A program made the translations under genes and the position numbers. The notes beneath the pieces are model-generated. The model made no database searches. It was given only the letters and a program-made list of their open reading frames with translations, and was not told the origin of the DNA. Below are positions 14,609 through 53,892 of a DNA stretch of 64,000 nucleotides, one piece after another; the first letter of the stretch is position 1, and each line of letters opens with the position of its first letter. Location of the stretch: IMG/VR virus record IMGVR_UViG_3300033553_000372, positions 13,041 through 77,040 of that record. One strand, written 5' to 3'. The DNA is from a virus.

Positions 14609-15955
14609 TTGAACTTTTTGCCCATAAGTTTCTTCTATAATTTTTAATCTAGTTCTGGAGTGAGATATTAAGTGTTTTGCTCCATAATCCATAAAATTAA
14701 AATAATAACCTACTTTCTTATTTGGAGACTTACGTACGACGCGACCAACTTTTTGCATAATTTGCGATCTAGCTTTTCCACCAGACAAATCTATACAAGC
14801 GCCAGCGACTTTTGTATCAACACCTTCTCCTAATACAGAAGTACCAATTAAACAAGGTCTTTTAAATTCATTAAACTCTTTAATCATATCCATATTATAT
14901 TGAGCTGATTCATCTTGGCCATTTAAAAATAATGAGTCACCTATTAAGCGTTGAATTTCTCTTCCATGTTCAACATGATCAACTAAAATTAAAGTAGGGA
15001 TATTATTTCTCATCATCTTTTGAGCAGTTTCAATAGCTATAGCATTTCTATCTGCATTATTATCAATAAAATGTTTTACGTCAGATCTATAAACTCCATG
15101 AGAAGTCTTATCATAATTCTTTATATTAAAAAACATTGGAACTACCGGGGTGATATAGCCTTTATTGATAGCATCTTGAACTGGAACTACATAAATAGTA
15201 TCTGACAAAACACATTCCAAATAGATAGCTTCATTATCATCATTTTTAAAATTAGTAGCTGTTAGTCCATATCTATAATAGATATTTTTAAAATGAGTTT
15301 GAAAAAAGCTTCTACAAGTATTAGCTGCTGCATTATGAAACTCATCGAAAATAACTTGTTGAAATTGGTCAAAATACTCTGGAGGCATATTCTCAATTGC
15401 ATGATAGTTGGTAACAACAATTGGTTTTGTAGCTCTTTTATCCATGAGGGACACGCTAGAGTTGCCAAAACAGGCTGAAATATAGTTATAAGTCTGAGTC
15501 TTTAGGTTACTTGAGGGTGTAATGATTAACGTAGGTCGTTGCGTTTTTAATAAAGCTTCCTTTATTGTTCTTGTTTTACCAATACCAGTTGGCATTTCAA
15601 GAATACCGCTATCATTTTTAGCAATAGCTGAAGATCCGAGTTCTTGTTCTAGATAAGCCGTTGGCTCGTCCAATTTATTAACTAATCCAATATTTATTTT
15701 ATTAGGCTTTATTCTATTATCAGCAATCTGATATGGTAAATTTCTTTCCATTAAGAAAGTTTCAACTCTTTTTAATAATCCAGTTGGAAATCTACCAAGT
15801 TCATCTATTAATAATTTAGTAGCTGCTTGTCTATTTTTTCTTCTAATGAATATAGACATATCAAAAAAAGCTACAGCTTGTCTAAGACTATAGAAGTCTT
15901 TTTGAGTTAAATTTAAAATTCTAGAATTTGAATTTTCTAATATAATAATTACCAT
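14594..15955 (-). CDS. Superfamily 2 DNA helicase (UvsW/type III Res-like)
   Basis: Walker A MPTGIGKT, DEFH, TAT, EGVD, QKVGRVVR. Confidence 0.9.
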   Translation of the reverse strand: MVIIILENSNSRILNLTQKDFYSLRQAVAFFDMSIFIRRKNRQAATKLLIDELGRFPTGLLKRVETFLMERNLPYQIADNRIKPNKINIGLVNKLDEPTAYLEQELGSSAIAKNDSGILEMPTGIGKTRTIKEALLKTQRPTLIITPSSNLKTQTYNYISACFGNSSVSLMDKRATKPIVVTNYHAIENMPPEYFDQFQQVIFDEFHNAAANTCRSFFQTHFKNIYYRYGLTATNFKNDDNEAIYLECVLSDTIYVVPVQDAINKGYITPVVPMFFNIKNYDKTSHGVYRSDVKHFIDNNADRNAIAIETAQKMMRNNIPTLILVDHVEHGREIQRLIGDSLFLNGQDESAQYNMDMIKEFNEFKRPCLIGTSVLGEGVDTKVAGACIDLSGGKARSQIMQKVGRVVRKSPNKKVGYYFNFMDYGAKHLISHSRTRLKIIEETYGQKVQLIDT

Positions 15956-16397
15956 ATATATATTAATACTTAAAAACTATGGAAAACGCTAAATTTGTTG
16001 AGGCTATTGGCGTTAGAGAAACAGGCTACTAAAATAAACCTTGGAAATAGGCCGTAGGCAACATTCGATCACCCACCCAAATCATAAAATATTAAAAAAT
16101 TTTTTTCAAAAATAAAGAAAATATAAAAAATTCTTCCACATAAAAATAAAAAAATTATTTTATGTACTTGCGGGCCCGCCGGAATATAATAACATTGCCT
16201 GCTATGCTAGCATGATTGAAGCAGTGGCCTACTGGACAAAATGAATTTCTAATAGATTTGTTTTTGAGTCGAATATGTCCTAATCACTAAGGTTTTAATC
16301 TATTTAGATTTTTTAGAATTTAGATCTATATAGATTCTATCTTAAATAAATACTAAAATAAAATATTCTTATTCTTATGCTTGAACTATGTCCTGGG

Positions 16398-16425
16398 TTT
16401 ATATACCCAATGCACAGTGTGTCAA
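16398..16425 (-). promoter_or_regulatory. Leftward sigma70-like promoter TTGACA-N16-TATAAA
   Basis: Minus strand reads TTGACA (16425-16420), 16-nt spacer, TATAAA (16403-16398); points toward the SF2 helicase about 430 nt away. Confidence 0.5.
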
Positions 16426-16508
16426 TGCATTTTCAAATAAACGATGTAAAAAAATAAAACTTAAGTAAAAATAGTTTCGAAGTATAGTTACAAAAACTAG
16501 GATATATA

Positions 16509-17864
16509 ATGACATCACCCAAATTTACTTTTGATGAAAGATTCCAGATTACCATCTTCGAATTATTGACTACAGATAAATATTTTGCAGAAAAATGTTT
16601 TGAACATGTAAGTCCAGAAAGTTTTAAGAATGAATATTTTGCTACCATCTATAATATTCTTCTCGGTCTATATAGAAAATATGAGTCAGTTCCGACAATT
16701 AATCAATTAAAAAATGAAATGCTTCAGATAAGTAATCCAACTAAGTCTGAGATTTTATTAGGAATTTATAAAAGAATAATAGATCCAACAGATACTAGAG
16801 ATTATGAATACGTTAAAAAGAATTTAGAGAATTTTATAACACATAACCATATGCATCAGTTAGTTAATGGTATTATAAAGAACCAAAATGATCCACAAAA
16901 AGCAATTGAGGCTGCCACTAAAGAAATGGAAGCCATTTCAAATATCTCTTTCTCTACTACAAAAACCGAAAACTTGTCAAATATAGAATCAATTCTACAA
17001 AGGTCTGCTGAATCATCAACACAATTAATACCAACTTTTATGCCTACAATGGATAATGAAATGGGTGGCGGTGTTCCAAGAGGAACTTTAACCTGTGGAT
17101 TAGCTGGAACAAATGTTGGTAAATCTATTTGGATGATTAATTGGGCTTATCATTTAATAAACAATGGATATAAAGTTTTCTATGTAAATTTAGAAGGATA
17201 CGCTGATCAACCATTATTAAGAATGATAACGCGTTCTCTAAAAGCCAATTTCTTTCAAGTGAGATGGAACAAGATTTCTGAACATGAAAGGGAAATGGCA
17301 TTGAAATTTCAAAATGAAAAAGGAAAGAATTTTGAGTTTATGCATAACTCTTCATTTGATTTTACAGTTGAAGACTTATTGCCAATGGTTAGAAAAATGC
17401 ACGCTGATTTTCAATTTGATGTTTTAATGGTAGACTATGGGCAACTTTTAAAATCTAAAAGAAAATTTGAAGGCATTCGTCACGAACAATCTTATGTCCA
17501 TAGAGCATTAGCGACTATTGCGGGCGAATTAAATATTGCTGCAGTTACAGTTGCTCAAGGAACTCGAGATACAAATGTAAAAAATCATAATGGTTCTAGC
17601 TTAATAAGAATGACTGATATCTCAGAGTGTTTTGAGATTATGAGAGCATGTGCTACCGTATTCACACTAAATAGATCTGAAAGAGACGAAGAAATGGAAA
17701 AGGTAAGAATACTTTGTGATAAACAAAGAGATGGTAAAAAGAATATTATTGAAATTTGCAAGACAGATTTTGGTAAAATGTGCTTTTATGGCCCAGAATC
17801 AGAAGGCCTTGGTTTTATGAATGTTAAACAATATTTAGAAGAAAATCCAAAAGAAAAAATGTAA
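16509..17864 (+). CDS. dnaB: Replicative DNA helicase (DnaB/T4 gp41-like)
   Basis: Walker A AGTNVGKS (gp41-style), LEG, VDY, AQ..R, KQRDG. Confidence 0.9.
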   Translation: MTSPKFTFDERFQITIFELLTTDKYFAEKCFEHVSPESFKNEYFATIYNILLGLYRKYESVPTINQLKNEMLQISNPTKSEILLGIYKRIIDPTDTRDYEYVKKNLENFITHNHMHQLVNGIIKNQNDPQKAIEAATKEMEAISNISFSTTKTENLSNIESILQRSAESSTQLIPTFMPTMDNEMGGGVPRGTLTCGLAGTNVGKSIWMINWAYHLINNGYKVFYVNLEGYADQPLLRMITRSLKANFFQVRWNKISEHEREMALKFQNEKGKNFEFMHNSSFDFTVEDLLPMVRKMHADFQFDVLMVDYGQLLKSKRKFEGIRHEQSYVHRALATIAGELNIAAVTVAQGTRDTNVKNHNGSSLIRMTDISECFEIMRACATVFTLNRSERDEEMEKVRILCDKQRDGKKNIIEICKTDFGKMCFYGPESEGLGFMNVKQYLEENPKEKM

Positions 17865-18979
17865 TGTCACAATTCAACTATAAAGATTTAGAAAATTTAC
17901 TTCAAGAAGTTGATATAAACTATATTGAAAACAATTCTCACTTTATAATTAAAGAATGTCCAAACTGTAATGGTGAAGATAAACTATTTATCTCTAAATC
18001 TAATTTATTATGGCAATGCTTTAAATGCAAAGATGTTGGTAATCCAGAATTTGGTAAAGGTAACTTATATTTTTTATTAAAAAACGTTCTTTATTTAGAT
18101 AATATTCAAATAAAGTCTATTATTTTTGATAATAAGACTATTGAATATGCCCCAGAAGTTTTAACAATACCAGAAGAAAAAATTAAAGAAGAAAAAGTTT
18201 TACATAAAAATATAACTCAATATGAAGTTCCATCTTATTTTTATAAATTAGATTGTTCTGAAGAATCTATGAAAAAATATCCAGAAGCATATAGATATTT
18301 AATTCAAAGAAAAGTGACATCAAAAGATCAGATATTAAAGTTTGATTTAAGATATAATTCTGCTCAAAAAAGAATAATATTTCCTGCTTATATTGAAAAA
18401 GATTTTATAGTTGGAGTTCAAGCTAGAGATATAACTTTGCGATATAAAGAGCACCACCCAAAATGTCAAAATTTTAAGTGCAATTTATCTAGAAAATATT
18501 ATTTTAAAAATGAAACAGTAGCCCCAATACATTGTCCAGAGTGTAATGAAAAATTAGTAGACTCTTTTTATCCAAAGGCAACTAATTCAAAGGATTTTCC
18601 AAAAACAGAATTATTCTTTAATCAACAAAATGTAAACTGGAATTTACCAGTTGTTTTAGTTGAAGGGCCATTTGATACTATAATGACACCAAATTCATTA
18701 GGATTATTAGGAAGAACACTTTCTTCTAATCAATTCAATATCTTGGTTAATAATATAAAAAGAGATAATAAACTAATTTTATTTTTAGACGGCGACGAAG
18801 CTGGGACACTTTCGACCTTAGATGTGTATAGAAAACTATATCCATTTATTAATATAAAAATATGTCCTCTTTATAATGACGACGATCCTGGTTCACACTC
18901 TTTAGAGCAAAATGTTATAATGTTAAATACTATTTTATCCCCATTTGATTGGGCTATTTCAAAAAATATCTTATTGTAA
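17864..18979 (+). CDS. dnaG: DNA primase
   Basis: N-terminal CPNC...CFKC zinc finger, IIFP, TOPRIM VEGPFD and FLDGDEAG, DPG; adjacent to the helicase. Confidence 0.88.
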   Translation: MSQFNYKDLENLLQEVDINYIENNSHFIIKECPNCNGEDKLFISKSNLLWQCFKCKDVGNPEFGKGNLYFLLKNVLYLDNIQIKSIIFDNKTIEYAPEVLTIPEEKIKEEKVLHKNITQYEVPSYFYKLDCSEESMKKYPEAYRYLIQRKVTSKDQILKFDLRYNSAQKRIIFPAYIEKDFIVGVQARDITLRYKEHHPKCQNFKCNLSRKYYFKNETVAPIHCPECNEKLVDSFYPKATNSKDFPKTELFFNQQNVNWNLPVVLVEGPFDTIMTPNSLGLLGRTLSSNQFNILVNNIKRDNKLILFLDGDEAGTLSTLDVYRKLYPFINIKICPLYNDDDPGSHSLEQNVIMLNTILSPFDWAISKNILL

Positions 18980-19096
18980 ATAAAATTTATATAAATCAAT
19001 AGTGTAACAAAAAGTTATATTTTTATAGTATCAAAAGTTAAACAAATGGTTAATGATCCATCCACAACAATTTACGCTACTTTTTGGAGGATTTCA

Positions 19097-19726
19097 ATGA
19101 AAAATCAAGAGACATATGTCTATTCTGAAGAACTGTTTAATTCATTAAAAGGCATCACTATTAAGAACATTCGCAGAGAAATGGGTGGAGTTGATTTAGA
19201 TCAAGCGGGTTATGATTATGAGGATTTAGAACAAGAATGTAGGATTTGGCTATTGGAAGCATGTAAGCAATTTAATCCAGAATGTGGAATGAAATTTCAT
19301 AACTTTTATTGGATCAAGATTTCTTCTAAATTAGGAAACTATAGAAACAAATTCCAACGTCAGCAGAAAAAAGGAAGAGTCAGAAACTTTACCTCAATAG
19401 GCGAATCTTTTTGGGGACTAGTTGGATTAGAATCTTCCGGTGAAGAATCTTCTGGTCATTATAGTTCATATATGGAATCAAATCATAATGATAATAATGA
19501 TGTTATTGATAGTATAATTGAAGTAAAGAAAATTTTACCATTATTGAATCCAACAGAAAAGGTTATTTACAATGATTTTTTCATTTTAGGTAAATCTTTA
19601 CCAGAAATCGTAAGAACTAATGAATTTAAAAAGAATGATAAGCCTCTCAAATATTATCAAATTAGAAAAATTATTGACGATTTGAAAGGTATTCATTCAA
19701 CATTAGTATTAAGTGAGTATACTTAA
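19097..19726 (+). CDS. Sigma70-family-like RNA polymerase sigma factor (1)
   Basis: Region-2-like EDLEQE..IWLLEA..QFNP..G.KF; region-4-like C-terminus. GGAGG RBS supports a start at 19097. Confidence 0.7.
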   Translation: MKNQETYVYSEELFNSLKGITIKNIRREMGGVDLDQAGYDYEDLEQECRIWLLEACKQFNPECGMKFHNFYWIKISSKLGNYRNKFQRQQKKGRVRNFTSIGESFWGLVGLESSGEESSGHYSSYMESNHNDNNDVIDSIIEVKKILPLLNPTEKVIYNDFFILGKSLPEIVRTNEFKKNDKPLKYYQIRKIIDDLKGIHSTLVLSEYT

Positions 19727-19740
19727 TTTAGGAGATACTT

Positions 19741-20172
19741 ATGATTAATCCAGAAAACCAATGTGCTCACCTTACGGATAAAGAAACTAAAAGTCTTTCA
19801 TTAAAAGAAATGTTTGATATGCAATTATCACTTCAACTAAATATGTTTGAAAGAGGCAGAGGTGTTGATTATGTTAATGGAACATTTAAAGAAAAGGTAG
19901 ATAATTTAACAATTCAAAAAAGAAACTTAGATACTGAGTTTGTTGAGTTAATTGAAAGACTTCCTTGGAAAGAGTGGAAAACATACTCTGCAGAACAATT
20001 ATCTGGTTGGACTTCAAAAGAACAAGAGCTTGAAACTAAGTTTGAATATGTAGATATGTTACATTTCTTCATTAACTTAGGACTATTAATTGGAATTTCA
20101 GCTGAAGAAGTTGGTCAATTATATTATTTAAAAAATAAAGAGAATTTCGATAGACAAGAAAGAGGATATTAA
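19741..20172 (+). CDS. dCTPase/dUTPase, T4 gp56-like (all-alpha NTP pyrophosphatase)
   Basis: NQCAHL, MFDMQ, WKEWK, KFEYVDMLHFFIN and YYLKNKENFDRQERGY closely match T4 gp56 as recalled (NECAHL; KFELVDIFHFVLN; YYLKNKHNFERQDNGY). Confidence 0.88.
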   Translation: MINPENQCAHLTDKETKSLSLKEMFDMQLSLQLNMFERGRGVDYVNGTFKEKVDNLTIQKRNLDTEFVELIERLPWKEWKTYSAEQLSGWTSKEQELETKFEYVDMLHFFINLGLLIGISAEEVGQLYYLKNKENFDRQERGY

Positions 20173-20188
20173 ACAATAGGAGTTATAT

Positions 20189-20545
20189 ATGGAAAATGTT
20201 AAAAAAGAAAAAGTAGCTAAAAAATCAAGATCAACTTACATTATTCAATGGTGGAACGAAGGATTTAAAACTAAAGCAGAAATCGCCACAAAACTTCATG
20301 AAATTGAAAATAACGGAACACTTGTTCAAAAGAAAACTTCTATTATAAGAGATGAAAAGTTTTTTGTTGGTGTTGCAAATTGGTATATCACGCAATTAGC
20401 AAGAGCTGGAAAGATTGATTATGTTGTTGCTGTTAGAAAACCAAGAGTAAAGAAAGCTGAAGCGCCAGTTGTTGAGGAAACTATTAAATCTGAAGATGTT
20501 ACTGTTGTATCTACTTCAGAAGAAACTGAAATTCCTACCTTGTAA
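20189..20545 (+). CDS. Hypothetical protein (basic N-terminus, acidic tail), possibly DNA-binding
   Basis: AGGAG RBS; composition only. Confidence 0.55.
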   Translation: MENVKKEKVAKKSRSTYIIQWWNEGFKTKAEIATKLHEIENNGTLVQKKTSIIRDEKFFVGVANWYITQLARAGKIDYVVAVRKPRVKKAEAPVVEETIKSEDVTVVSTSEETEIPTL

Positions 20546-20556
20546 TTTTTGGAGCA

Positions 20557-21057
20557 ATGATGATAGTTATTTGGATCGAAGGTGTAGACAATAGCGGAAA
20601 ATCAACCTTAGCTAAAAAGTTAATAGAAGCCTTTAATTTAGAATACATTCATTGCTCTAAACCAAAAACCGATAATCCGTTTTTAGAATATAAAGAAATG
20701 ATTCAACAAATTAATAAGCCCACAGTATTTGATAGAGGATATTGTGGCGAATTTGTTTATTCACAATTATGGAGAGGTGGACTATCTATGAAAATGGACG
20801 AGTTCCATCAATTAGATGATTTATGTAAAGAAAGATTTGGATTTAAAACCATTATTATTCATGCACAAGCTCCACTACATATCATAAAAGATAGGTGTAT
20901 TAAAGAAAAAGAAGACTTGCTTCAGTTAGATCAGATTGAAAAATGTCAGCACTTGTTTACTGAAATCATGTTTCATACAAAAATGCCAGTATTAGATTAC
21001 TTTTCTCATACTCAAGAGCCAAAAGATATAATCGAAAAGCTATCTGCATTTCTTTAA
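20557..21057 (+). CDS. Deoxynucleoside monophosphate kinase (thymidylate kinase fold)
   Basis: IEGVDNSGKST P-loop and FDR motif; sits between the dCTPase and the TS-fold gene. Confidence 0.85.
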   Translation: MMIVIWIEGVDNSGKSTLAKKLIEAFNLEYIHCSKPKTDNPFLEYKEMIQQINKPTVFDRGYCGEFVYSQLWRGGLSMKMDEFHQLDDLCKERFGFKTIIIHAQAPLHIIKDRCIKEKEDLLQLDQIEKCQHLFTEIMFHTKMPVLDYFSHTQEPKDIIEKLSAFL

Positions 21058-21084
21058 GTAATATAAAAATATTAAGGATTATAT

Positions 21085-22032
21085 ATGACAAACTATTCCA
21101 CTGTGTTTAGAAATTGTGTTACTGAAATTATGAATCATGGCGATGAAGTCTCACCAAGAGGACAACTAACTAAAGAAAAATTATCTCACACAATTAAAGT
21201 TAATCCATTAAAGAGTATTTTTTCATCTCCTATTAGAGAAATAAATCATTCATTCTTATTTGCTGAAAATTTATGGTACCTTTCTGGAAGAAATTCAATG
21301 TTTCTTCTAACTCATTATAATAAAAATTACCATAATTTTGCAGATGATTCTATATTACAAGGCGCCTATGGCCCAATGATATTAGAGCAAATTAGGTATA
21401 TTGTTAATACGCTTAAAAAGGACAATGATTCGAGACAAGCTGTAATTTCTTTGTGGAGACCTAATCCATCTGAAGCAAAAGATAAACCATGTACGCTCAA
21501 TTTTCATTTTATGATTCGCAATGGTCAACTTAATCTTCATGTTACTATGAGATCAAATGATGCTGTTTGGGGACAAAATTATGATGTTCCATCTTTTAGC
21601 TTACTTTTATTAGTGATAGCTGGATCTCTTGCTGTCAAACCAGGACATTTATATTTAACGGCTAATAGTTTACATATATACGAAAAACACTTTGAATTAG
21701 CTAACGAAATAAAAAATTCTCAAGATTCTGATTATAAAGATGTAGAGTTTATTGAAGCACCAAATGAAACGCTTGAATGTCAACTATATTATGTTGAACA
21801 ATGCATCATGGCTCATTATCTTTTAGTTTCAAATAATTTTGATTTATTGAAATTTAATTCATTACCAAATTTTTACAAACAATATGTTGGAGCTATGGCT
21901 TATCATATTCAACATAAAGTTAAATCAGAAATATTAGTAGAAGATATTATCTATTATATTAGTGACGCAAATAGTTCTTTAGGTAATATGTTCAATGACA
22001 AATATAAATCGTACTTACTCAAATCTAAATAA
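21085..22032 (+). CDS. Thymidylate-synthase-fold enzyme, probable dCMP hydroxymethylase
   Basis: E..W, YG, SRQA, catalytic PC, MRSND..WG..YD (Asp where dUMP enzymes have Asn), SLHIY. Confidence 0.8.
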   Translation: MTNYSTVFRNCVTEIMNHGDEVSPRGQLTKEKLSHTIKVNPLKSIFSSPIREINHSFLFAENLWYLSGRNSMFLLTHYNKNYHNFADDSILQGAYGPMILEQIRYIVNTLKKDNDSRQAVISLWRPNPSEAKDKPCTLNFHFMIRNGQLNLHVTMRSNDAVWGQNYDVPSFSLLLLVIAGSLAVKPGHLYLTANSLHIYEKHFELANEIKNSQDSDYKDVEFIEAPNETLECQLYYVEQCIMAHYLLVSNNFDLLKFNSLPNFYKQYVGAMAYHIQHKVKSEILVEDIIYYISDANSSLGNMFNDKYKSYLLKSK

Positions 22033-25000
22033 TAAAAGCCATTTTTCTTGTGGAATTGGTATTGGTAAACCAATAGAGATTATCAATAAAGCAAAAGAAA
22101 AAGGTCTTAGTGGTATAGCTATAACAGACAGGTATACTATCGCCGGACTTCTTGATTTTTATTTTCTAGCAAAAAAAGAAAAATTTCCACTTGCTTTAGG
22201 TGTAGAACTTTTCTTTTTCGATTATTCTAATAAGATAAATAGAATTATTTTGATTGCTAAAAATCAAGAAGGATATTTTAATCTTTGTAAATTAGTTTCT
22301 TCTTCTCATAATAATATAGATATGCATAAAGTTCCTTGTGTTTCTTTTTACGATCTTAATGAATTTAAAGATTCACTTTATTGCTTAATAGACAATCATG
22401 ATTATCATAAAATATTAGAGCCTATCTTTAAAGAAAATTTAATATATGAAATTATTCTTGATAGTGATCATATTGACAAAAATAAATCTATTATAGAAAG
22501 CGGTAATAAATTCGTAATAACTTCAGACGCATTTATTCCTGATGAGACATTTAAAATACTTCAAGACATTATGATAGATAATGCATCATTTAATTCTACA
22601 AAAGAAGTTTTCACAGAGTCTAAACATATTTTATCCTTTAATGAATTAGTAGAAAAATGGAAGAATCATATAGATTACTTTCCAGCCCAAAAGTTTATAG
22701 AAGGAATCGACTTATCAAATTTAATATTAAATGAATGCTCAAAAATAGAATTAAAATTTAATGATCAAGTTGTAAATTTCCCACACCTCCTTCATCCATT
22801 TAATTTAGAAGGACATTCAAAAACAGAATTAGTTTGGAAAATTGCTAAAGAATATGGTAGACTTCAAGATAATTCTATCTATAGAGAAAGATTTGAATTT
22901 GAAATGGATGCTATTCAGAATAATGGTCGAGTAGATTTAATAGATTATTTTTTAGTTTTAGAGGATTTGTGTCGCTGGTGTAGAGAAAATGGAGTCATGG
23001 TTGGGCCTGGAAGAGGTTCTGGAGCTGGATCATTAGTTAACTATTGTCTTAAAATAACTCACCTAGATCCAATAAAATATAATTTGCTGTTTGAAAGATT
23101 TATCTCTAAAGGTCGTATTCAAATGGGTACGTTACCAGATATTGATTTAGATTTTTCTCACCCAGATAAAGCGAGAGAATATTTAATTGAAAAATATGGA
23201 TATGATAGAGTCATAAGAATAGGAACTGCTCAAACACTAAAAGCAGCTGGATCAGTTAAAGATGTAGCTAAGTTTTTAAATCCAGAATTAGATTTTATGA
23301 CAATTAATAATATCACAAGAACTTTTGGTGTTAAAGACCAAGATGAAACTGAGCTTCAATTCTTTGAAAGAAACTGTAATGAAAATGATGTTGCTAAATT
23401 ATTTTTTGACCAATATCCACAAATCAAAGAAAACGTTGGTAGATTATTAGGATACAATAGACAATATGGAACTCATCCCTGTTTTAGTGGCGATTCAACT
23501 ATACTTACAGATGAAGGTTTTAAATCTTTTAGTGAACTCAATGGTTCAATAAAGAAGGTTTTAACACCAGATGGTTGGAAAGAAGCTATTTTTTTTACAA
23601 ATGGATATAAAGATATTAACGTATTTAAATTTAAAAGTAAGCAATTATCTAACAAATCTTATTACACAAAAAATACTGAAGATCATTTATTTTTAAATAA
23701 CAAAAATGAATTTGAGAATTTATCCTCGAATTTTATTCCTTCTCAATTATTAGCTAACGATTTCGATAGATTATTTATTCTTTTAGGTTGGTTATGGAAT
23801 GATGGAACATATTTAAAAAATAAGAAGAGATTTTTTCTTTATCTTACAAAAGAAAAAGATGAGGCGATTTTATCATTATTAAATGAGAACGATTACGAGA
23901 TTACAAATAGATCTGATAGAGTGCTATTATCGCTAGAACTATCTAAACAAATTTTTAATTTAGGTTATTGCTGTGAATTAGTTAGAAATAAAACTTTTCC
24001 TATTAATTGGAATATTTGGACTTTAAAACAAAAGTTCTCTTGGTTAAGGGGTATGTTTAGTGCCAATGGCTGTGTGATCAGGTCTGCAATAACATTAAAG
24101 CTCACATCTATTCCTCTTATACAAGAAATTCATAATTTTTTAAAGGAAAATAAATACGTTAATGTTAAGCTTGGAATTGGAACTCAAGATTTAAAAGGTT
24201 GGAAATCTAGACCAACAGGAAGCTTTTATTTATCATTTTATGGTAATTGTCTTTTTTCTAAAACGATAGGGTTTTTACAAGAATATAAAAATTTAAAGAT
24301 TTATAATAAAATATCTTATATAAATAAAGAATTAATAATAGAAAATCAATTAGTATATGACTTTACTGTATTAGATGGATCTTGTCCTATTGGTTTAGTT
24401 AATGGATTATGGGCTCACAATTGTGGAATAGCTATAACACAAGATCCATTATTTAATTTTGCTCCACTAAGAAAAGTAAAAGGACAACATGTTTTAGAAT
24501 TTTCTGCAAAAAGTTGTGAATTATCTGGCATTATTAAATACGATATACTTGGACTAATGACATTATTATTTTTACAAAATTGTTGTGAATTAGTAGGCAT
24601 CGACGATATATATGATATACCACTAGACGATAAAGAAACATTTAAAGGCTTTATTGATGGACTAACAGCTGGAACATTTCAGTTTAATTCAGATGTAGCA
24701 ATAAATATTTTATCTCATCTCCCTTTAGAATTAATGAATCTTGATTTATTGTCAATGACAACTTCAGTTGGTAGACCTGGTCCAATGAAGAATCATCAAC
24801 ACGTTGAATTTTACAAGAGAGTTTTAGGAGATAAATTTTCTAGTCCGCCACATCCAGCTTTAGAAGAAGAATTGAGAGGAACTTATGGTATTATGATTTA
24901 TCAAGAATCTGTAATGAAGGCTTCACAAATTCTTGGAGGATTCACTTTAGCAGAAGCAGATGATATTAGAAAAGCAATGGGTAAAAAAGATCCAAAAGTT

Positions 25001-25990
25001 CTCATACCATATAAAGAAAGATTTATTAATCACTGTTTTCTAAAGTATCCAGAAACTAAATTTGATTTTTATGATAGTGATGGAAACAAAGTTTCTACTG
25101 TTGGAGAACATATATGGGAACTAATGGCTACTTTCTCAGCTTATGGATTCAATAAGTCTCATTCAATGTCATATGCATTAATAGGTTACTATTGTCAATA
25201 TTTAAAAACGCATTATCCAATTCAATGGTGGATCAGTTGTTTTAAATTTGTAGATTCAGAAAAATTAAGAGAATATTATTCTGTTGCAAAAGAATATTGT
25301 GTTGATCCAGATATTAATTTATCTGAGATGGATTACATTATAAATAAAAATAATAAAATTCAGTTTCCATTTTCTTCTATAAAAGGATTAGGTCCTAAAG
25401 CAACAGAAGAAATTTATAAATGTAGACCATTCGTTTCATTTGATGATTTTATAACTAGAGTAAATAAAACTAGAGTAAATAAAACTGTAGTTCAGCAGCT
25501 TATATTCTCAGGTTGCTTTGAATCTCTACATCCAAATCAAACTCAAATACTAATAGATCAATATTTTATAAGTAGAAAAGAAAAGACTCCACCTGAATTA
25601 ACAGCTTTAGATAAATTTCAATTAAAAGAAAAAAGGGTAAATGCGTTATCATTTCTACAAGATGATCTTTATGATACATATGTCGATAGATATAGCGATA
25701 CATTTACCACATATGATCAAGCATTGATTGAAAATAAAGCTCGAAAGTTTATTAATATATTAGGTACTATAAAGAAAATAACTTTAAAGAAGACTAAAAC
25801 TAATAAAGCATTTGGAACTGTTGAGGTTGAAAATGCAGGTGAAACTTTAAAACTTAGAATATGGGAAGATGAGATAGATTTCTACAAAGAAACTTTAAAA
25901 GATAAAGTAAGAGTTAAAATTAAATGTGGAGTTTCTGGATATAATGGAACAGTTCAATTAACATTAGTAAGTATGGAGATATTAAAATGA
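21995..25990 (+). CDS. dnaE: DNA polymerase III alpha subunit (family C) containing an intein
   Basis: PHP-like N-terminus, GPGRGSGAGS, PDIDLDF, KYDILGL, YQE, GFNKSH, C-terminal OB fold. Confidence 0.95.
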   Translation: MTNINRTYSNLNNKSHFSCGIGIGKPIEIINKAKEKGLSGIAITDRYTIAGLLDFYFLAKKEKFPLALGVELFFFDYSNKINRIILIAKNQEGYFNLCKLVSSSHNNIDMHKVPCVSFYDLNEFKDSLYCLIDNHDYHKILEPIFKENLIYEIILDSDHIDKNKSIIESGNKFVITSDAFIPDETFKILQDIMIDNASFNSTKEVFTESKHILSFNELVEKWKNHIDYFPAQKFIEGIDLSNLILNECSKIELKFNDQVVNFPHLLHPFNLEGHSKTELVWKIAKEYGRLQDNSIYRERFEFEMDAIQNNGRVDLIDYFLVLEDLCRWCRENGVMVGPGRGSGAGSLVNYCLKITHLDPIKYNLLFERFISKGRIQMGTLPDIDLDFSHPDKAREYLIEKYGYDRVIRIGTAQTLKAAGSVKDVAKFLNPELDFMTINNITRTFGVKDQDETELQFFERNCNENDVAKLFFDQYPQIKENVGRLLGYNRQYGTHPCFSGDSTILTDEGFKSFSELNGSIKKVLTPDGWKEAIFFTNGYKDINVFKFKSKQLSNKSYYTKNTEDHLFLNNKNEFENLSSNFIPSQLLANDFDRLFILLGWLWNDGTYLKNKKRFFLYLTKEKDEAILSLLNENDYEITNRSDRVLLSLELSKQIFNLGYCCELVRNKTFPINWNIWTLKQKFSWLRGMFSANGCVIRSAITLKLTSIPLIQEIHNFLKENKYVNVKLGIGTQDLKGWKSRPTGSFYLSFYGNCLFSKTIGFLQEYKNLKIYNKISYINKELIIENQLVYDFTVLDGSCPIGLVNGLWAHNCGIAITQDPLFNFAPLRKVKGQHVLEFSAKSCELSGIIKYDILGLMTLLFLQNCCELVGIDDIYDIPLDDKETFKGFIDGLTAGTFQFNSDVAINILSHLPLELMNLDLLSMTTSVGRPGPMKNHQHVEFYKRVLGDKFSSPPHPALEEELRGTYGIMIYQESVMKASQILGGFTLAEADDIRKAMGKKDPKVLIPYKERFINHCFLKYPETKFDFYDSDGNKVSTVGEHIWELMATFSAYGFNKSHSMSYALIGYYCQYLKTHYPIQWWISCFKFVDSEKLREYYSVAKEYCVDPDINLSEMDYIINKNNKIQFPFSSIKGLGPKATEEIYKCRPFVSFDDFITRVNKTRVNKTVVQQLIFSGCFESLHPNQTQILIDQYFISRKEKTPPELTALDKFQLKEKRVNALSFLQDDLYDTYVDRYSDTFTTYDQALIENKARKFINILGTIKKITLKKTKTNKAFGTVEVENAGETLKLRIWEDEIDFYKETLKDKVRVKIKCGVSGYNGTVQLTLVSMEILK
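23480..24421 (+). mobile_element. Intein (314 aa) with LAGLIDADG homing endonuclease domain in DnaE
   Basis: Begins CFSGDS after extein GTHP and ends NGLWAHN before a +1 Cys (CGIAI); VYDFTV block F; LAGLIDADG-like LGWLWNDG and LRGMFSANG. Confidence 0.93.
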
Positions 25991-26538
25991 GTGTAGAACA
26001 AGAATTAATAGATGAAATGAAAAAAATTAATCTTCATTTGAATATGAAGCCTTCAAAAATTGAAGGTAATTTTTTAATTGTTGAATGTGATATAGATACT
26101 AAAATAGAATTAGAATGGATTGAAAAGATTTCTCTTGAAAAAATTACAAAGAGAAATTCTAAATTCTATGTTTGGTTTAAAACAACAGATACTACTACAA
26201 CTATATATTTCGCAACTGAAGTTCCAAAAGATTTCTTTTTAACTCACTGTATCTCAGAAACAATTATAGCAACTACATTTCCAGACTTATGTTGGATTCA
26301 TTCAGATGGAACAACTCCAGAAAATGTTAATGAAATTGCTACAAAGATGAGAGAAGGAAAAGAGTATAAAACAGGTGATTTAACTTGGCATCTTCCTTCT
26401 AAATATTTAGATGATCTTATTGAGATGCTCCACACTATTAATCCAAGCTTTATGTCTGGATTAATGCAAGATGGATTACTTTATGGACCATATGTAAAAT
26501 CAGCAATTAACTTTAACCAAGCTCAAGTCGAGCTATAA
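25987..26538 (+). CDS. Hypothetical protein in replication cluster
   Basis: GGAG RBS; ATGA overlap with dnaE. Confidence 0.6.
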   Translation: MSVEQELIDEMKKINLHLNMKPSKIEGNFLIVECDIDTKIELEWIEKISLEKITKRNSKFYVWFKTTDTTTTIYFATEVPKDFFLTHCISETIIATTFPDLCWIHSDGTTPENVNEIATKMREGKEYKTGDLTWHLPSKYLDDLIEMLHTINPSFMSGLMQDGLLYGPYVKSAINFNQAQVEL

Positions 26539-26549
26539 TAGGAGAATTT

Positions 26550-27434
26550 ATGAGTACAGAATTTTACGGATTTTCAGATGACATGTTTACATCTTCACAG
26601 AAGATTCAATTTCACAGTTTTAAAAATGGACAACATAAGTTTAGATTGTTGCCACCATATGCTCCAGGAAAAATGTTTGAACAAGTTGGTCTTCACTGGG
26701 GATACACAGATGAAAACAATAGAGTAAAAGCTTTAAAGTGCACAAAGTTTTCTCATAAGTTTTGTCCAATTTGTGACGAAGTTGAAAAAATGAATGGTCA
26801 AATTGAAATGATCAAAACTGGAGCAACGGCTTATCCAAACATTAAAGAAGCTGAAGAAGCAATTGGTGTTATTTTAAAAAGAGCTTCAGATATTAAAAGA
26901 AAGCCTACATATCTTTGGAACATTCTTACAGAAAATGGAGAACAAAAAGTTCTTTCTTTATCTTGGAACGGTCATGATCCACTTTATAATAAAGTAAAAT
27001 TATTCTGGGAGCAGAAAAAAATTAACGTAACTAATCCAAATGAGAATTACTTACTGTTTTGTGAAAGATCTGGTCAAGCAGCAAAAACAAGATACACTTA
27101 TGAAGTTTTAGATAATACGACTAGAAAATTAGAAGGTGTCTCTTCTCTAACAGATTTATCAAAAGTTTATAGAGACTACACTCCTTCAGAGCTTCAATTA
27201 ATTGTAGACCAAGGTCATGCTTCAAATCCAACCGAAGATCCAAATGATAGAAATTTTGCTGCTAATATGCCAAGCGGAATGAATCAAACAACTACACAGT
27301 CAACTGTTGCTCAAACAACTGTTGTTGCTCAACAATTTGCTACCACTCCTCCTCCAGCAGCTCCAGTTCCAACTGAATCTGTAAATGATACTGTAGCTCA
27401 AGAATTAGCAAATATGAAAGCATTATTAGGATAA
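26550..27434 (+). CDS. Single-stranded DNA-binding protein, T4 gp32-like
   Basis: FRLLPP, H...C...CPIC zinc site, low-complexity C-terminal tail, position upstream of recombination genes. Confidence 0.75.
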   Translation: MSTEFYGFSDDMFTSSQKIQFHSFKNGQHKFRLLPPYAPGKMFEQVGLHWGYTDENNRVKALKCTKFSHKFCPICDEVEKMNGQIEMIKTGATAYPNIKEAEEAIGVILKRASDIKRKPTYLWNILTENGEQKVLSLSWNGHDPLYNKVKLFWEQKKINVTNPNENYLLFCERSGQAAKTRYTYEVLDNTTRKLEGVSSLTDLSKVYRDYTPSELQLIVDQGHASNPTEDPNDRNFAANMPSGMNQTTTQSTVAQTTVVAQQFATTPPPAAPVPTESVNDTVAQELANMKALLG

Positions 27435-27442
27435 GGTGAATT

Positions 27443-27880
27443 ATGTATTTTCGTAAATATAAAAACTATGAAGACTTTTATGCTCAAAATCAGACTAAGT
27501 TTGATTGTGTTCAAATGGCAGCTGCAAAAATGAAATCAGTCAATGAGTTATCTCAAACTGGATCTGCTTTAGCAGAGTCTGAGAAGTTAACTTTTGATTT
27601 TTTGAACTTATCTAGTTTGTGTAGTGATTTATTGTTTGGCTTATCTTCTTCAGTTTTGGACGCAAAGTCTGATTATAAAAAAATAGAAGGAGTTTTCCAT
27701 AGAGCATCAGAAGAAAAATCTGTAGCAGCAAAAGAAAAACTTTGTCAATGTGATCCAGATTTTGTTGAATCCCATAAAAGGTTTAATGAGCTGACAGACA
27801 TTTTTGAATACATCACAAATAAGAAAAGAGATTTTGATGCTGCATACTATTATTATCGCAATATGAATTCAGATAAATAA
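27443..27880 (+). CDS. Putative recombination mediator (UvsY-like)
   Basis: 145-aa all-helical protein between SSB and RecA; inferred from size and synteny. Confidence 0.45.
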   Translation: MYFRKYKNYEDFYAQNQTKFDCVQMAAAKMKSVNELSQTGSALAESEKLTFDFLNLSSLCSDLLFGLSSSVLDAKSDYKKIEGVFHRASEEKSVAAKEKLCQCDPDFVESHKRFNELTDIFEYITNKKRDFDAAYYYYRNMNSDK

Positions 27881-27890
27881 GGAAAATAAT

Positions 27891-28982
27891 ATGGAAGAAA
27901 AACCTAACCTATTCGGTACCCTCTTGAAAAAAGAGGGTTTTTATAAAGCATCAACAATAGTTCAAGACTTAGTTTTAAAAGTTCCACCAAGGGCTCCAGC
28001 TTTTTCTTCTTCTCCAAGTTTAGCTTGGATGAGTTCAGTTGGATTTGAAGCCGGAACTATGTCGCTTTGGTTTGGACCAAAGTCTTCTGGTAAGACAATG
28101 TTAGTTCTAGATCTCATGAAAGATTTTATGAGACAAGAGCTAGATGCTGTAGCTGTTTTTATTGACGCTGAAATGTCATTTGAATTTGAAGCAACATTAA
28201 GATGGATGGCTGCAAATGGAATTGATCTTGATAGAGTTTTAGTTATAAGAGAAGTCTGTATTATGGAAATTTTCGAAACTAAAGTTTTAAAAGAATTAAA
28301 TCTTGCTATAAAAAATGAAGGAGTTAAGATTTGCTTTATGGCTGCCGACTCAATCCAAGCAATGTCTGTAATGAAAATTCCAGACACAGAAGCTCAAATT
28401 AATAAAGCAGCAAAAGATGGAGCCTTAACAAAAGCCGATTATGGAAAGAGAGCAAACTACTTAGCAAAGATATTTCCATTCTTGAGAATGTTTTGTAGAG
28501 ATAATCGTATCCATTTAGCCTTTATTGGACAAGCAAGATCAGGTGGAGAAGATACGTTTGGAAATCAAATATGGGAAACAAATGGTGGAGAAGCCCTTTA
28601 TCATGAAGTTCAATATAGATTTTTAATTACTCCAGCTGGTGAGCCAATATTCCATTCTACAGATTTAGATGCAAACGGTAAGCCTGTAAAAATAGGTCAC
28701 CAAATAAAATGTATCTGCCAAAAGAATAAAATGGGTGAAGGTCAAGATAGAGTCGGTTGGATTAATATCGAATATATGAAAGGCGTAGTTAATAAAGAAA
28801 ATGAACTCGTTGACATTTGTTCTAAATTGTCTATCATTGAAGGTGGTGGAGCTTGGCTTAATTACAATGGATCTAAGTACAATGGATCTAAAAAGATGGC
28901 TGAAGCTTTAAGAGAAGATCCATTGCTTTATAGAGAACTATTTAACAAAATGATGATGAGAGCATCTACCGGAGCAACATGA
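27891..28982 (+). CDS. recA: RecA/UvsX recombinase
   Basis: GPKSSGKT, FIDAE, DS, GG.AL, KNK, GAW. Confidence 0.9.
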   Translation: MEEKPNLFGTLLKKEGFYKASTIVQDLVLKVPPRAPAFSSSPSLAWMSSVGFEAGTMSLWFGPKSSGKTMLVLDLMKDFMRQELDAVAVFIDAEMSFEFEATLRWMAANGIDLDRVLVIREVCIMEIFETKVLKELNLAIKNEGVKICFMAADSIQAMSVMKIPDTEAQINKAAKDGALTKADYGKRANYLAKIFPFLRMFCRDNRIHLAFIGQARSGGEDTFGNQIWETNGGEALYHEVQYRFLITPAGEPIFHSTDLDANGKPVKIGHQIKCICQKNKMGEGQDRVGWINIEYMKGVVNKENELVDICSKLSIIEGGGAWLNYNGSKYNGSKKMAEALREDPLLYRELFNKMMMRASTGAT

Positions 28983-31900: not shown

Positions 31901-32257
31901 ACTGAAGCAAAGTCTGACATAAAAGAAAAGATTTCTGTTCAAATTATAAACAATGGAGATGAATGTTCTTATAATTCATTATCAGGCGGTGAGAGAGCTA
32001 GAATATGCTTAGCTTTAAATCTTTCATTAGCTAAAGTAATTGCTAAAAGTTCAGGAAATAAATTGAATTGGATAGCTTTAGATGAGATTCTTAATGGCTT
32101 AGATGAAGTTGGTAAAGCTCAAACTATGAAGTTCTTAAAGGAACTTGAATCAGAATATGAAACTATATTTGTGATTGATCATGATGAATCATTTAAGTCT
32201 ATGTTTACGAATTCTATATCGATAGTTAAGAAAAGCAAAGTGTCAACGATTGTATAG
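28979..32257 (+). CDS. Fused SbcD/Mre11 nuclease and SbcC/Rad50 ATPase
   Basis: SDVH, AGD, GNHD, GHYH phosphoesterase motifs; then NTGSGKS, coiled coil with CPHC hook, LSGGE, ALDE and H-loop in one ORF. Confidence 0.9.
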   Translation: MNTKLIVISDVHLSLKNLDVSIETLTQALKLSRDLKVPLFIAGDLNDGKALIRSEWANPLIDLFNEYNDVLIYILIGNHDLQNKNASSNSLYFLKALSNVCLIDKHITKNINGIDFGIIPYQVSTVELQDIILQMKDRDVKSLLIHQGIWGAYMGDYIVDESSISPDAFKDFDFVGSGHYHRSQRPADNILYWGSPFTTNFSEANEEKFIWKVELLNDKINTVPVMTNVRRHKQIVFEDSITQVEKLPANSLVKVLLKGTKEFTQSVTVEYLKELLGVNSVTISTEITKQSEQRVSSEILNNPIKVIEFYLANCKTTYDKLELEKYFKSAVGDLINNFSQSSSKQFRLKKANWNNFLSFKEESFEYSPMGLTLIEGYDEDLGVNTGSGKSSFLDVPCYGMYGETSKSLKADEVINRQVGRDLFVELFLESNGEEYIIRRYRKHRLFENDLHMVMPNGQELRGKDNRETQKLIEQELGKSLDIFLKSSYFTQFGPMDRFLSASDTEKKQLIAEITDLSIYDTILDRVKDLLKEDQKSLDSAETQLKQDSYVVSHLNVTIQDNTNKSINWNIAHNNRIIETGILVDKENIRIANDKIEFNNKSNEWLNQSSQSIKNLKSQEKGFEQLRLEMIDNFNTDLLMFNANQQGKIESINNEIEELRNKITPLQDKHDELLKTLPDMLTLENERKELLTKKETIAQLKIKEQNISNELFSNDKQIEALHNKIAADIKKINGGDSSECPHCYQELDANCIHKNIEVFQHDIDKLDNLSNDLRKKSDAIKFYIDQTPQVLERLQQIEKSGYEKKNIELELETILRTIKSIGETIKFKNDMLDQINSSVSPALAQIENKKKEANPYTQLIINEESKTNPYLEYRDIENKYILSLENLNKEINPYLSILEQNGFDIQQAQFAELKGLETLDYWVTKVDYGTWWKQALHVYIKSYLMDSCFEQINIIANEHLNTLFDGVLKINISATTEAKSDIKEKISVQIINNGDECSYNSLSGGERARICLALNLSLAKVIAKSSGNKLNWIALDEILNGLDEVGKAQTMKFLKELESEYETIFVIDHDESFKSMFTNSISIVKKSKVSTIV

Positions 32258-52702: not shown

Positions 52703-52915
52703 ATGCAATCTAGCAAGCCTATTCTAAAAGTTTCAACTAACGAACTATATAACGATTTCTTAAAAAATGCTAAATTAATTGATGAGGACTTGAATGATGA
52801 CTGTTCTTATGCTAAACAATTAAAGAACGATTATGATTACTGGCAAAGAAACGTAATGAATAAAGAAGCTCAAATGCAATTAAGAGATTCATTAAATAAA
52901 TGGAAAACAAAATGA
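52703..52915 (+). CDS. Hypothetical protein
   Basis: AAGGA RBS; overlaps the galE start. Confidence 0.55.
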   Translation: MQSSKPILKVSTNELYNDFLKNAKLIDEDLNDDCSYAKQLKNDYDYWQRNVMNKEAQMQLRDSLNKWKTK

Positions 52916-53892
52916 AGTTCATAGTTACCGGCGGATCTGGCTACATTGGCTCTCATATGTGTAAACTCTTAAGATCAATGGATCATGAAGTATGTATCAT
53001 TGACGAAATTAAACCTAAACATAAATATTATTCAGATTATTTTCAATTTAATATTGGTCATAGTTCCATAATTGGAGGATTCTTAAGTTTTATAAAGCCG
53101 GATGGAGTGTTTCATTTTGCAGCTCATTCAATAGTTCCAGAATCAGAACAAAATCCAATGAAGTATTACCTTAATAACGTGAATGAATCTATTTCTTTTA
53201 TAAATGAAGTAGTAAAAGCTAATGTTCAACATTTTATATTCTCATCTACTGCGGCTGTATATGGAACTCAGACCTCAGAAAATATGTTTCAAACTCATTT
53301 TAGAGAAGACGATAGAAAGAATCCAATTAATAGTTACGGTAAAACTAAATCTATTATTGAAGATGTTTTATTAGACCTTTCTTCTAAAGGTAAATTAAAA
53401 ACTACGATACTTAGATACTTTAATGTTGCCGGTTGTTGTCCTGAATCGACAATAGGTGAAGACCATGATCCAGAAACTCACATCATTCCAAAAATTATTA
53501 AAGAAATATTGAATGGAAAAGATGAAGTATTTATCTATGGTAATAAATACGAAACAATAGATGGAACTAATGTGAGAGATTATGTTCATGTTGAGGATTT
53601 AGTTGAAGCACATTGGAAAGCTTTCATGTTAATGACCAATACATCATCGGCTTCAAATTTAATAATGAACATCGGAAGTCAAAAAGGCTTTACAAATCTT
53701 GAAGTAATTAGTACTATATTGAAAGTAATGAAATCAAATTGCAAAATAACTATTGCTCCACCAAGACACGGTGATCCTGATAGTTTAGTTGCTATAACTT
53801 CATTGGCTAAAAATCTTATAAACTATGAGCCTGAATTTGATCTTGAAGATATGATAAGGCATACATATAATTATTTAAAGGAAAGAAAATGA
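52900..53892 (+). CDS. galE: UDP-glucose/GlcNAc 4-epimerase
   Basis: VTGGSGYIGSH, HFAA...V.ES, SSTAAVYG, YGKTK, LRYFN, RDYVHV.DL, R.GDP. Confidence 0.93.
   Translation: MENKMKFIVTGGSGYIGSHMCKLLRSMDHEVCIIDEIKPKHKYYSDYFQFNIGHSSIIGGFLSFIKPDGVFHFAAHSIVPESEQNPMKYYLNNVNESISFINEVVKANVQHFIFSSTAAVYGTQTSENMFQTHFREDDRKNPINSYGKTKSIIEDVLLDLSSKGKLKTTILRYFNVAGCCPESTIGEDHDPETHIIPKIIKEILNGKDEVFIYGNKYETIDGTNVRDYVHVEDLVEAHWKAFMLMTNTSSASNLIMNIGSQKGFTNLEVISTILKVMKSNCKITIAPPRHGDPDSLVAITSLAKNLINYEPEFDLEDMIRHTYNYLKERK

Follow-up and report, generated by a model that had tools for sequence, protein, structure and literature searches.

A predicted hydroxymethylcytosine cassette of T-even type beside the family C polymerase gene of an uncultured phage

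Does a cassette of four genes, lying immediately upstream of the replicative polymerase gene of an uncultured phage, replace cytosine by 5-hydroxymethylcytosine (hmC) in the manner of the T-even phages, or does the thymidylate synthase (TS)-fold enzyme that it encodes act on another pyrimidine or make another product? The cassette occupies positions 19741-22032 of a 64,000-nucleotide stretch of viral DNA (the window), which corresponds to bases 13041-77040 of the 77,040-bp IMG/VR virus record IMGVR_UViG_3300033553_000372, which has direct terminal repeats (exact, 141 bp) and is rated complete. An earlier reading of the letters of this DNA (the original prediction) had seen in the cassette a dCTPase, a nucleotide kinase and a TS-fold enzyme specific for dCMP, which together would make 5-hydroxymethyl-dCTP (hm-dCTP) and so supply the acceptor for a glycosyltransferase encoded about 31 kb away. 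In the analysis described here, all enzymatic steps of the proposed pathway are deduced from sequence. Every discriminating test at this level favoured a dCMP hydroxymethylase over the alternatives, and the probability that the cassette serves hm-dCTP synthesis, followed by glycosylation of the DNA, is put at about 0.78.

Substrate and product of the TS-fold enzyme

The TS-fold enzyme matches PF00303 with 97.2 bits against a cut-off of 24.3 bits (E 1.2e-27) and phrog_5131 with an E value of 2e-50. None of the NCBIfam ThyA equivalog models comes near its cut-off (76 versus 327 bits in one case), which indicates that the protein is not an orthodox ThyA. It contains the motif MRSNDAVWGQNYD, whose final Asp (D167) aligns with N177 of Escherichia coli ThyA and D179 of T4 gp42. 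The aligned catalytic and phosphate sites C136, E61, Y95, R156 and R117 (C146, Glu58, Tyr94, Arg166 and Arg126' in E. coli) are invariant in its relatives.

A comparison of phage contigs with modified and unmodified cytosine found that sites 177 and 147 (E. coli numbering, used for all site numbers below) best split their TS homologues, and that Asp at 177 by itself turns a TS into a dCMP methylase (MetaGPA, PMC8670742). Further, enzymes with non-methyl products have an acidic residue at 143, and the 5-hydroxy-dCMP synthases are distinguished by Asn at 169, which all tested members carry (Lee et al. 2026, PMC13326640). Positions 143/146/147/166/169/177 were read from an alignment of the phage enzyme with 120 database homologues and with T4 gp42, SPO1 gp29, the M6, ViI and phiW-14 enzymes, RB69 gp48, the Xp12 enzyme and E. 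coli ThyA. The signature of the enzyme from the window is D-C-T-R-D-D (D133, C136, T137, R156, D159 and D167), the same as that of T4 gp42, whose product is 5-hydroxymethyl-dCMP (5hm-dCMP). SPO1 gp29 and the M6, ViI and phiW-14 enzymes read D-C-N-R-D-N (product 5hm-dUMP), RB69 gp48 reads E-C-T-R-N-D (5-hydroxy-dCMP), Xp12 N-C-P-R-D-D (5-methyl-dCMP) and E. coli ThyA L-C-H-R-D-N (dTMP). The site rule classifies every characterised enzyme of the alignment correctly and places the enzyme from the window with gp42, which suggests the same product; all six of its signature residues are invariant in 20 relatives sharing 39-78% identity. The original prediction had relied on the rule that Asp instead of Asn at the final motif position specifies dCMP, and D167, together with the identity to gp42 at all diagnostic sites, supports its assignment.

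The dCMP methylase of Xanthomonas phage Xp12, which would leave 5-methylcytosine in the DNA, provides a first alternative, given that Asp177 alone suffices for conversion of a TS and that Xp12 shares both Asp177 and Asp169 with the enzyme studied here. However, position 143 is Asp as in the hydroxymethylases and not Leu or Asn, position 147 is Thr and not Pro or His, and position 80 is Tyr, in contrast to the Trp of ThyA and Xp12. A helical domain like that of MilA stands where a TS has its closing C-terminus, and the T4 beta-glucosyltransferase (BGT) homologue of this genome requires a hydroxyl acceptor. The chance that the enzyme is a methylase is accordingly rated as very slight.

The MilA likeness came from an AlphaFold model built on relatives (predicted local distance difference test score, pLDDT, 90; predicted template modelling score, pTM, 0.90). 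Its best structural match was MilA, the CMP 5-hydroxymethylase of mildiomycin biosynthesis, with a template modelling (TM) score of 0.77 over the full length, and MilA is also the best sequence match (E 2e-21; PDB 5jnh, 5b6d). Because the match extends over the full length, the C-terminal extension of about 100 residues (about amino acids (aa) 215-315) can be equated with the extra helical domain of MilA. The two enzymes further share Asp at 177 and at 143. They differ in their setting, antibiotic synthesis in one case and phage DNA replication in the other, and in the residues that choose the sugar. MilA owes its preference for CMP to Ala176 and Lys133, which stand in place of the Ser and Arg found in TS and T4 CH; in the A176S/K133R mutant the preference shifts to dCMP. 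The phage enzyme has S157 and R117 at these sites (S167 and R126 in E. coli), as T4 CH and TS do, and this deoxyribose pair makes dCMP the predicted substrate.

A maximum-likelihood tree was built from 71 sequences. In it the enzyme falls in a clade of 26 uncultured proteins (SH-aLRT 100), apart from the dUMP hydroxymethylases, which have a clade of their own. T4 gp42, RB69 gp48 and Xp12 sit on long branches whose placement is unreliable, the gp42 branch (3.75) lying outside the clade of the phage enzyme. The phylogeny that the original prediction had proposed as a check hence sets the enzyme apart from the dUMP hydroxymethylases and fails to join it to gp42 as a sister. Since placement between clades is unreliable, the assignment rests on the active-site states and the gene context and not on orthology with gp42.

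These data bear on a second alternative, in which the enzyme would hydroxymethylate dUMP or be a thymidylate synthase of the ordinary kind, fed by the dCMP deaminase, so that the phage would have 5-hydroxymethyluracil (5hmU) in its DNA or an increased supply of dTMP for an AT-rich genome. The G+C content of the phage genome is indeed about 30% and a dCMP deaminase gene is present; moreover, in the nearest named phage records the homologue is called 'thymidylate synthase' or 'deoxyuridylate hydroxymethyltransferase' and a dCMP deaminase gene adjoins it. Contrary to this, the four experimentally established dUMP hydroxymethylases combine Asn177 with Asn147 and keep to their own clade, whereas the phage enzyme has Asp167 and Thr137. 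The 'dUMP' labels of PW916 and AXL3 are annotation only, and both proteins read D-C-T-D-D. T4 possesses a dCMP deaminase too, and no homologue of an hmU-DNA kinase was found near the gene in a search with the proteins encoded beside the M6 and ViI enzymes. This alternative, like the methylase, has very little probability. No ThyX, second PF00303 gene or C5 DNA methyltransferase was found in the genome; with no phage dTMP synthase of the ThyA or ThyX type, dTMP must come via the host enzyme. In the fetched loci, dCMP deaminases accompany most D-C-T-D-D homologues.

The same alignment touches the naming of deposited genes. The TS homologues of phage PW916 (L005:3280-4098), phage AXL3 (L020:3986-4795), Pelagibacter phage HTVC119P (L021:3941-4789) and a further locus (L006:6001-6789) all read D-C-T-R-D-D, and they carry the labels 'deoxyuridylate hydroxymethyltransferase' or 'thymidylate synthase'. 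Judged by their active sites, these four enzymes are probably dCMP and not dUMP hydroxymethylases, and their current labels are probably wrong.

The partner enzymes

The first gene of the cassette, preceded at 8 nt by a ribosome-binding site rated good (AGGAG), encodes a true homologue of T4 gp56, as the original prediction had supposed. The two proteins are 36% identical end to end (168 columns; pairwise E 4e-24) and share the C-terminal motif LYYLKNK.NF.RQ..GY. The protein also matches Pfam dUTPase_2 above the cut-off (E 2.6e-7) and the NTP pyrophosphohydrolases of phrog_173 (E 8e-21). By its homology to gp56 it is expected to hydrolyse dCTP and dCDP.

The kinase of the cassette matches phrog_761 'thymidylate kinase' (E 1e-17), and its match to Pfam Thymidylate_kin stays below the cut-off. 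It has the P-loop of the Tmk type (EG.D..GK) and a DR motif, with E8, G9, D11, G14, K15, D59 and R60 invariant in 16 homologues. Its structural model (pLDDT 94) found YorR of the Bacillus subtilis phage SPbeta as the top Foldseek match (3kb2, TM 0.82), followed by Tmk and deoxynucleoside kinases. In BLASTP, T4 gp1 aligned with it only at the P-loop (E 0.47) and had no match in the whole genome at E <= 1. The P-loop kinase of the original prediction was thus confirmed as a kinase, and its relation to gp1 is one of analogy and not of homology. A kinase of the type that acts on 5-hydroxymethyl-pyrimidine DNA in M6 and ViI was also considered and rejected, since proteins encoded next to the enzymes of these two phages gave no match and the fold is that of YorR and Tmk.

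An iterative search of the fetched loci brought together 46 members of this kinase family, including RB69p045. When the count was limited to TS homologues with at least 900 nt of upstream sequence, a member of the family lay directly upstream of 32 of the 53 that read D-C-T-D-D and of none of the nine with other signatures, which makes the kinase and TS homologue pair a recurrent unit. The pair was found in dozens of uncultured phage contigs, and in environmental phages it is a kinase resembling YorR and Tmk, and not gp1, that usually accompanies the cytosine-type TS homologues. The kinase of the cassette is a putative hm-dCMP kinase.

Most homologues of the kinase in other uncultured phages are longer (270-380 aa) because of an additional domain of about 130-160 aa at the C-terminus, which the kinase of the cassette does not have. 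The domain contains the conserved motifs YVG..P, AF.P..GTSG and PHPQ(Y/F)(I/V)RRF (L029:7009-7980, L050:5156-6226, L047:2561-3652, L035:6895-7914, L040:4480-5481 and others), which may resemble motifs of the uracil-DNA-glycosylase superfamily.

Kinases of this family are also known from phages with a different modification. RB69p045 and DLP3 gp78 are listed as 'nucleotide kinase' with a YorR match and lie inside cytosine-modification clusters (Lee et al. 2026, PMC13326640). A third alternative follows from these clusters, namely that the TS-fold enzyme is a flavin- and O2-dependent 5-hydroxy-dCMP synthase of the RB69 gp48/DLP3 gp80 type and that the sugar is ether-linked directly to 5-hydroxycytosine. 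In such synthases, too, position 177 is Asp, position 143 is acidic and position 147 is Thr, and their genes cluster with those of a kinase of the YorR/Tmk type (RB69p045, of the same family as the kinase of the cassette, and DLP3 gp78) and with glycosyltransferases. However, the residue at 169, Asn in the tested synthases, is Asp in the phage enzyme (D159) and in all 20 relatives, and the transferase encoded here is a homologue of the hmC-acting T4 BGT, whereas the arabinosyltransferases of RB69 and DLP3 are described with other structural relatives. We consider a 5-hydroxy-dCMP synthase highly improbable, if somewhat less so than a methylase or a dUMP enzyme. Even taken jointly, the three alternatives are unlikely; each fails at least one diagnostic site and conflicts with the T4 BGT homologue or with the tree.

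The glycosyltransferase that the original prediction had placed about 31 kb from the cassette proved to be a homologue of T4 BGT. It matches phrog_7922 'beta-glucosyltransferase' over its full length (E 1.5e-26), shows 26% identity with the T4 enzyme over 345 aa (E 6e-22) and has T4 BGT as its only match in the PDB (1bgt, 1nzd; E 4.7e-17). The end of a galE ORF overlaps the start of its gene.

The position of this gene in other phages is informative. The closest relative locus obtained (L023/L070, hereafter L023) is a 26.5-kb fragment from a record about 25% complete; its TS homologue is 48% identical to that of the window, and the two loci are syntenic from the helicase to UvsX. A search for related loci with a single protein gave only three, and among the loci from the metagenome scan the relatives sharing 57-78% identity were absent. 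In L023 the dCTPase, a 120-aa ORF, the kinase, the glycosyltransferase, the TS homologue and DnaE follow one another in a single run, with the gene for the BGT-like transferase (32% identity) between those for the kinase and the TS homologue. GalE and dCMP deaminase were not found in this record, of which only about 25% is available. L023 also has a 73-aa ORF (L023:6644-6865), which separates the kinase gene from the BGT-like one.

BGT-like transferases were seen only beside D-C-T-D-D homologues, in seven distinct loci comprising L023 and six further ones where the two genes abut. The in-cassette location in L023 and the abutting location in the six others indicate that the 31-kb separation in the window is a lineage-specific rearrangement. 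This clustering of transferase and cassette in other loci is the strongest contextual evidence that the product of the cassette is the acceptor of the transferase. The corresponding inference of the original prediction, that hm-dCTP made by the cassette supplies this acceptor, draws support from the site signature, the gp56 and BGT homologues and the synteny with L023.

A last alternative accepts that hmC is made and supposes that it replaces cytosine only partly, or that it has a fate other than glycosylation while the BGT homologue acts on another substrate. The transferase gene does lie 31 kb off in another gene block, next to galE; no analogue of Alc, EndoII or EndoIV was identified; and 5hmC is carbamoylated in other phages (PMC8670742). 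Against this, the presence of a dedicated dCTPase suggests that dCTP is depleted, the transferase has an orthologue inside the L023 cassette and BGT-like genes abut D-C-T-D-D genes in the six further loci, and no carbamoyltransferase or other modifying enzyme was found among the scanned ORFs. Incomplete replacement or another fate is quite improbable, though a little less so than a 5-hydroxy-dCMP synthase.

The proposed pathway and known systems

Several points weigh against hm-dCTP synthesis followed by glycosylation. The specificity rules derive from a limited set of characterised enzymes. The best sequence and structure match of the TS-fold enzyme is MilA, an enzyme that prefers CMP, and its clade is not sister to the very long-branched T4 gp42, the nodes between clades being without resolution. 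For the kinase family, no substrate is known from experiment, and in RB69 it was the gp1-type kinase and not RB69p045 that was tested (PMC13326640). Finally, no gene for the exclusion or breakdown of cytosine DNA, such as an analogue of Alc, EndoII or EndoIV, was identified, so that replacement may be incomplete.

With these reservations, hm-dCTP synthesis and glycosylation can be described as a pre-replicative pathway that would swap dCTP for hm-dCTP, T4-like in design and with a partly different parts list. The gp56 homologue would hydrolyse dCTP (and dUTP) to the monophosphate, thereby removing the normal substrate and feeding the next enzyme. The TS-fold enzyme would then hydroxymethylate C5 of dCMP by means of Cys136 and methylene-tetrahydrofolate; Asp167 would select cytosine, Ser157 and Arg117 would select deoxyribose, and Asp133, together with the absence of a closing C-terminus, would favour attack by water over hydride transfer. 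The YorR/Tmk-like kinase may convert hm-dCMP to hm-dCDP, which the NDP kinase of the host would turn into hm-dCTP for incorporation by the phage DnaE, whose gene overlaps that of the hydroxymethylase. The dCMP deaminase would divert part of the dCMP to dUMP for thymidylate synthesis by the host. After replication, the BGT-like transferase would glycosylate hmC in the DNA, and GalE, presumably co-transcribed, would supply the epimer of the UDP-sugar.

The resemblance to T4 comprises the homologues of gp56 and BGT, a counterpart of Cd, gp42 residues at all diagnostic sites and the same logic. The differences are that T4 uses the gp1 kinase and this phage a YorR/Tmk-like one; that the hydroxymethylase has a C-terminal domain of the MilA type and does not group closely with gp42 in the tree; that the replicase is DnaE and not of family B, the head is of the HK97 type and the closest terminases are those of Thermus phages; and that GalE is coupled to the transferase, with no alpha-glucosyltransferase, Alc or cytosine-DNA nucleases recognised here. 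The environmental phages of the MetaGPA study (eLife 2021, PMC8670742) are likewise represented by non-T4 contigs, whose TS homologues have Asp at 177, a changed residue at 147 and co-occurring NTP pyrophosphohydrolase and dCMP deaminase domains. In them, too, 5hmC is the acceptor for a second enzyme, a validated carbamoyltransferase, where the present phage has a T4 BGT homologue and GalE. The 5-hydroxycytosine clusters of RB69, DLP3 and RL38J1 (NAR 2026, PMC13326640) also contain genes for a kinase of the YorR/Tmk type and a TS homologue, together with glycosyltransferase and sugar-nucleotide genes; they differ by Asn at 169, 5-hydroxy-dCMP as product and arabinose or galactofuranose as sugar, as opposed to Asp at 169 and GalE here. 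Two cultured siphoviruses, AXL3 (Stenotrophomonas) and PW916 (Pseudoxanthomonas), have the same order of NTP-PPase, kinase of the same family and D-C-T-D-D homologue (42% identity), in a block annotated as hydrolase, 'thymidylate kinase', 'thymidylate synthase' and dCMP deaminase. Their kinases are longer, with an extra C-terminal domain, a methyltransferase gene lies upstream, and no BGT homologue was seen in the stretches examined.

The original prediction was correct in describing a T-even-like pathway in a phage built differently from T4, and it overstated the novelty that it implied: a pathway of this kind is widespread among environmental phages and already published (PMC8670742, PMC13326640), TS homologues of the cytosine type have been described across several phage families (Lee et al. 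2026, PMC13326640), and the kinase and TS pair recurs widely. The phage is a further example and the value of the finding is incremental. Specific to it is the combination of three features: a dnaE gene that overlaps the gene of the hydroxymethylase, a BGT homologue coupled to GalE, and a conserved small ORF. It offers a well-supported case of the predicted glycosylated-hmC strategy of T-even phages in a phage otherwise unrelated to T4, and the three predicted enzymes of the cassette, of 143, 166 and 315 aa, may form a compact gene set for heterologous production of hm-dCTP.

Genome setting, the 118-aa ORF and other genes

Table 1. Cassette genes and functionally related genes, in window coordinates.
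Feature	Coordinates	Strand	Basis or remark
dCTP/dUTP pyrophosphatase (predicted), T4 gp56 homologue, all-alpha NTP-PPase, 143 aa	19741..20172	+	Pfam, PHROG, pairwise identity
118-aa protein, small family confined to uncultured sequences	20189..20545	+	no family assigned
YorR/thymidylate-kinase-like P-loop nucleotide kinase, 166 aa	20557..21057	+	PHROG, motifs, model
TS-fold dCMP hydroxymethylase (predicted), 315 aa	21085..22032	+	PF00303; C136, D133, T137, D159, D167, R117, S157; MilA-like C-terminal domain
DnaE, family C replicative polymerase, 1331 aa	21995..25990	+	overlaps hydroxymethylase gene by 38 nt; intein-containing
UDP-glucose 4-epimerase GalE	52900..53892	+	TIGR01179, 304 bits vs 262.3-bit cut-off; PF01370, E 4e-45; phrog_540, E 1e-64
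T4 DNA beta-glucosyltransferase homologue, putative hmC-DNA glycosyltransferase, 387 aa	53889..55052	+	PHROG, pairwise, PDB
dCMP deaminase, counterpart of T4 Cd, 162 aa	57110..57598	+	phrog_174, E 2.7e-37

The four cassette ORFs have the coordinates and the strand given for them by the original prediction, and the E values of their family matches lie well outside the range of chance. They are closely spaced inside a long rightward replication block with the order DnaB, primase, sigma-like factor, cassette, DnaE, SSB and UvsX. The overlap with dnaE was also described correctly: the stop codon of the hydroxymethylase gene (22030-22032) lies 38 nt into the dnaE frame, which starts with the ATG at 21995. 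The pathway is split over three loci as proposed, the third, besides the cassette and the transferase gene, being that of the dCMP deaminase. The claim that the phage is built unlike T4 holds for the family C replicase, the HK97-type head and the large terminase, whose best cultured matches are Thermus phages with only about 25% identity, a distance that points to a deep uncultured lineage and not to a relative of T4. DNA of the cassette was present in cold-spring metagenomes, in two runs of one study, one of which is possibly the source; no RNA run was listed with it. A promoter scan of 15900-28000 gave 65 sites against 72.6 expected and hence no signal.

The 118-aa protein encoded between the dCTPase and the kinase had been singled out as a candidate component of the pathway. 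It matched no Pfam, PHROG or NCBIfam family, and a word-index search with it returned only itself. The 120-aa ORF in the equivalent slot of L023 shows weak but real similarity to it (pairwise E 1e-5), with a shared WY(I/L)TQ.A...ID motif. A profile of these two sequences retrieved 25 small proteins at E <= 1e-3 from a library of 1.8 billion proteins; it gave chance-level matches only against the PDB and none against PHROGs, and a search with a narrow alignment of the family returned only L023 again. The ESM Atlas gave low-confidence, winged-helix-like hints (scores 0.80-0.82, TM < 0.5, model pLDDT 0.49). Co-occurrence of the family with the cassette was seen in one relative, L023. The protein is thus best described as a conserved neighbour with a possible role in the pathway. 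That it is a new factor dedicated to the replication of DNA with modified cytosine, acting as an Alc-like discriminator of hmC-DNA and C-DNA or tethering the enzymes to the DnaE-type replisome, seems unlikely; if it were, the lineage would show a family C polymerase adapted to the exclusive use of hm-dCTP.

Other genes of the window deserve a brief description. DnaE contains an intein of 314 aa (aa 496-809, nt 23480-24421), which starts at the Cys of ...HP|CFSGDS... and ends at ...LWAHN|CGIAITQDP. The same site is uninterrupted in L023 (HPCGLAITQDP), whose intein-less DnaE is 43% identical. Two weak sigma-factor-like proteins are encoded at 19046-19726 and 35537-36124 (phrog_351, E 4e-6 and 2.5e-5; Pfam Sigma70_r2 below the cut-off), and the first of these ORFs lies directly upstream of the cassette and has a counterpart in L023 that is 30% identical. 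A single ORF of 1092 aa (28979-32257) joins an SbcD-like nuclease (aa 1-326, phrog_100) to an SbcC-like ATPase (aa 205-1091, phrog_77), apparently a fusion of the two subunits that correspond to T4 gp47 and gp46. The ORF at 46090-46461 encodes a homologue of T4 endonuclease V, the pyrimidine-dimer glycosylase DenV (phrog_1183, E 2.7e-40), and represents a further T4-like accessory gene. Among the few leftward genes is that of a metallophosphoesterase (55909-57030, - strand; phrog_20266, E 3e-65) whose N-terminus carries an HNH-associated repeat; it is flanked by the GalE-transferase pair on one side and the dCMP deaminase gene on the other.

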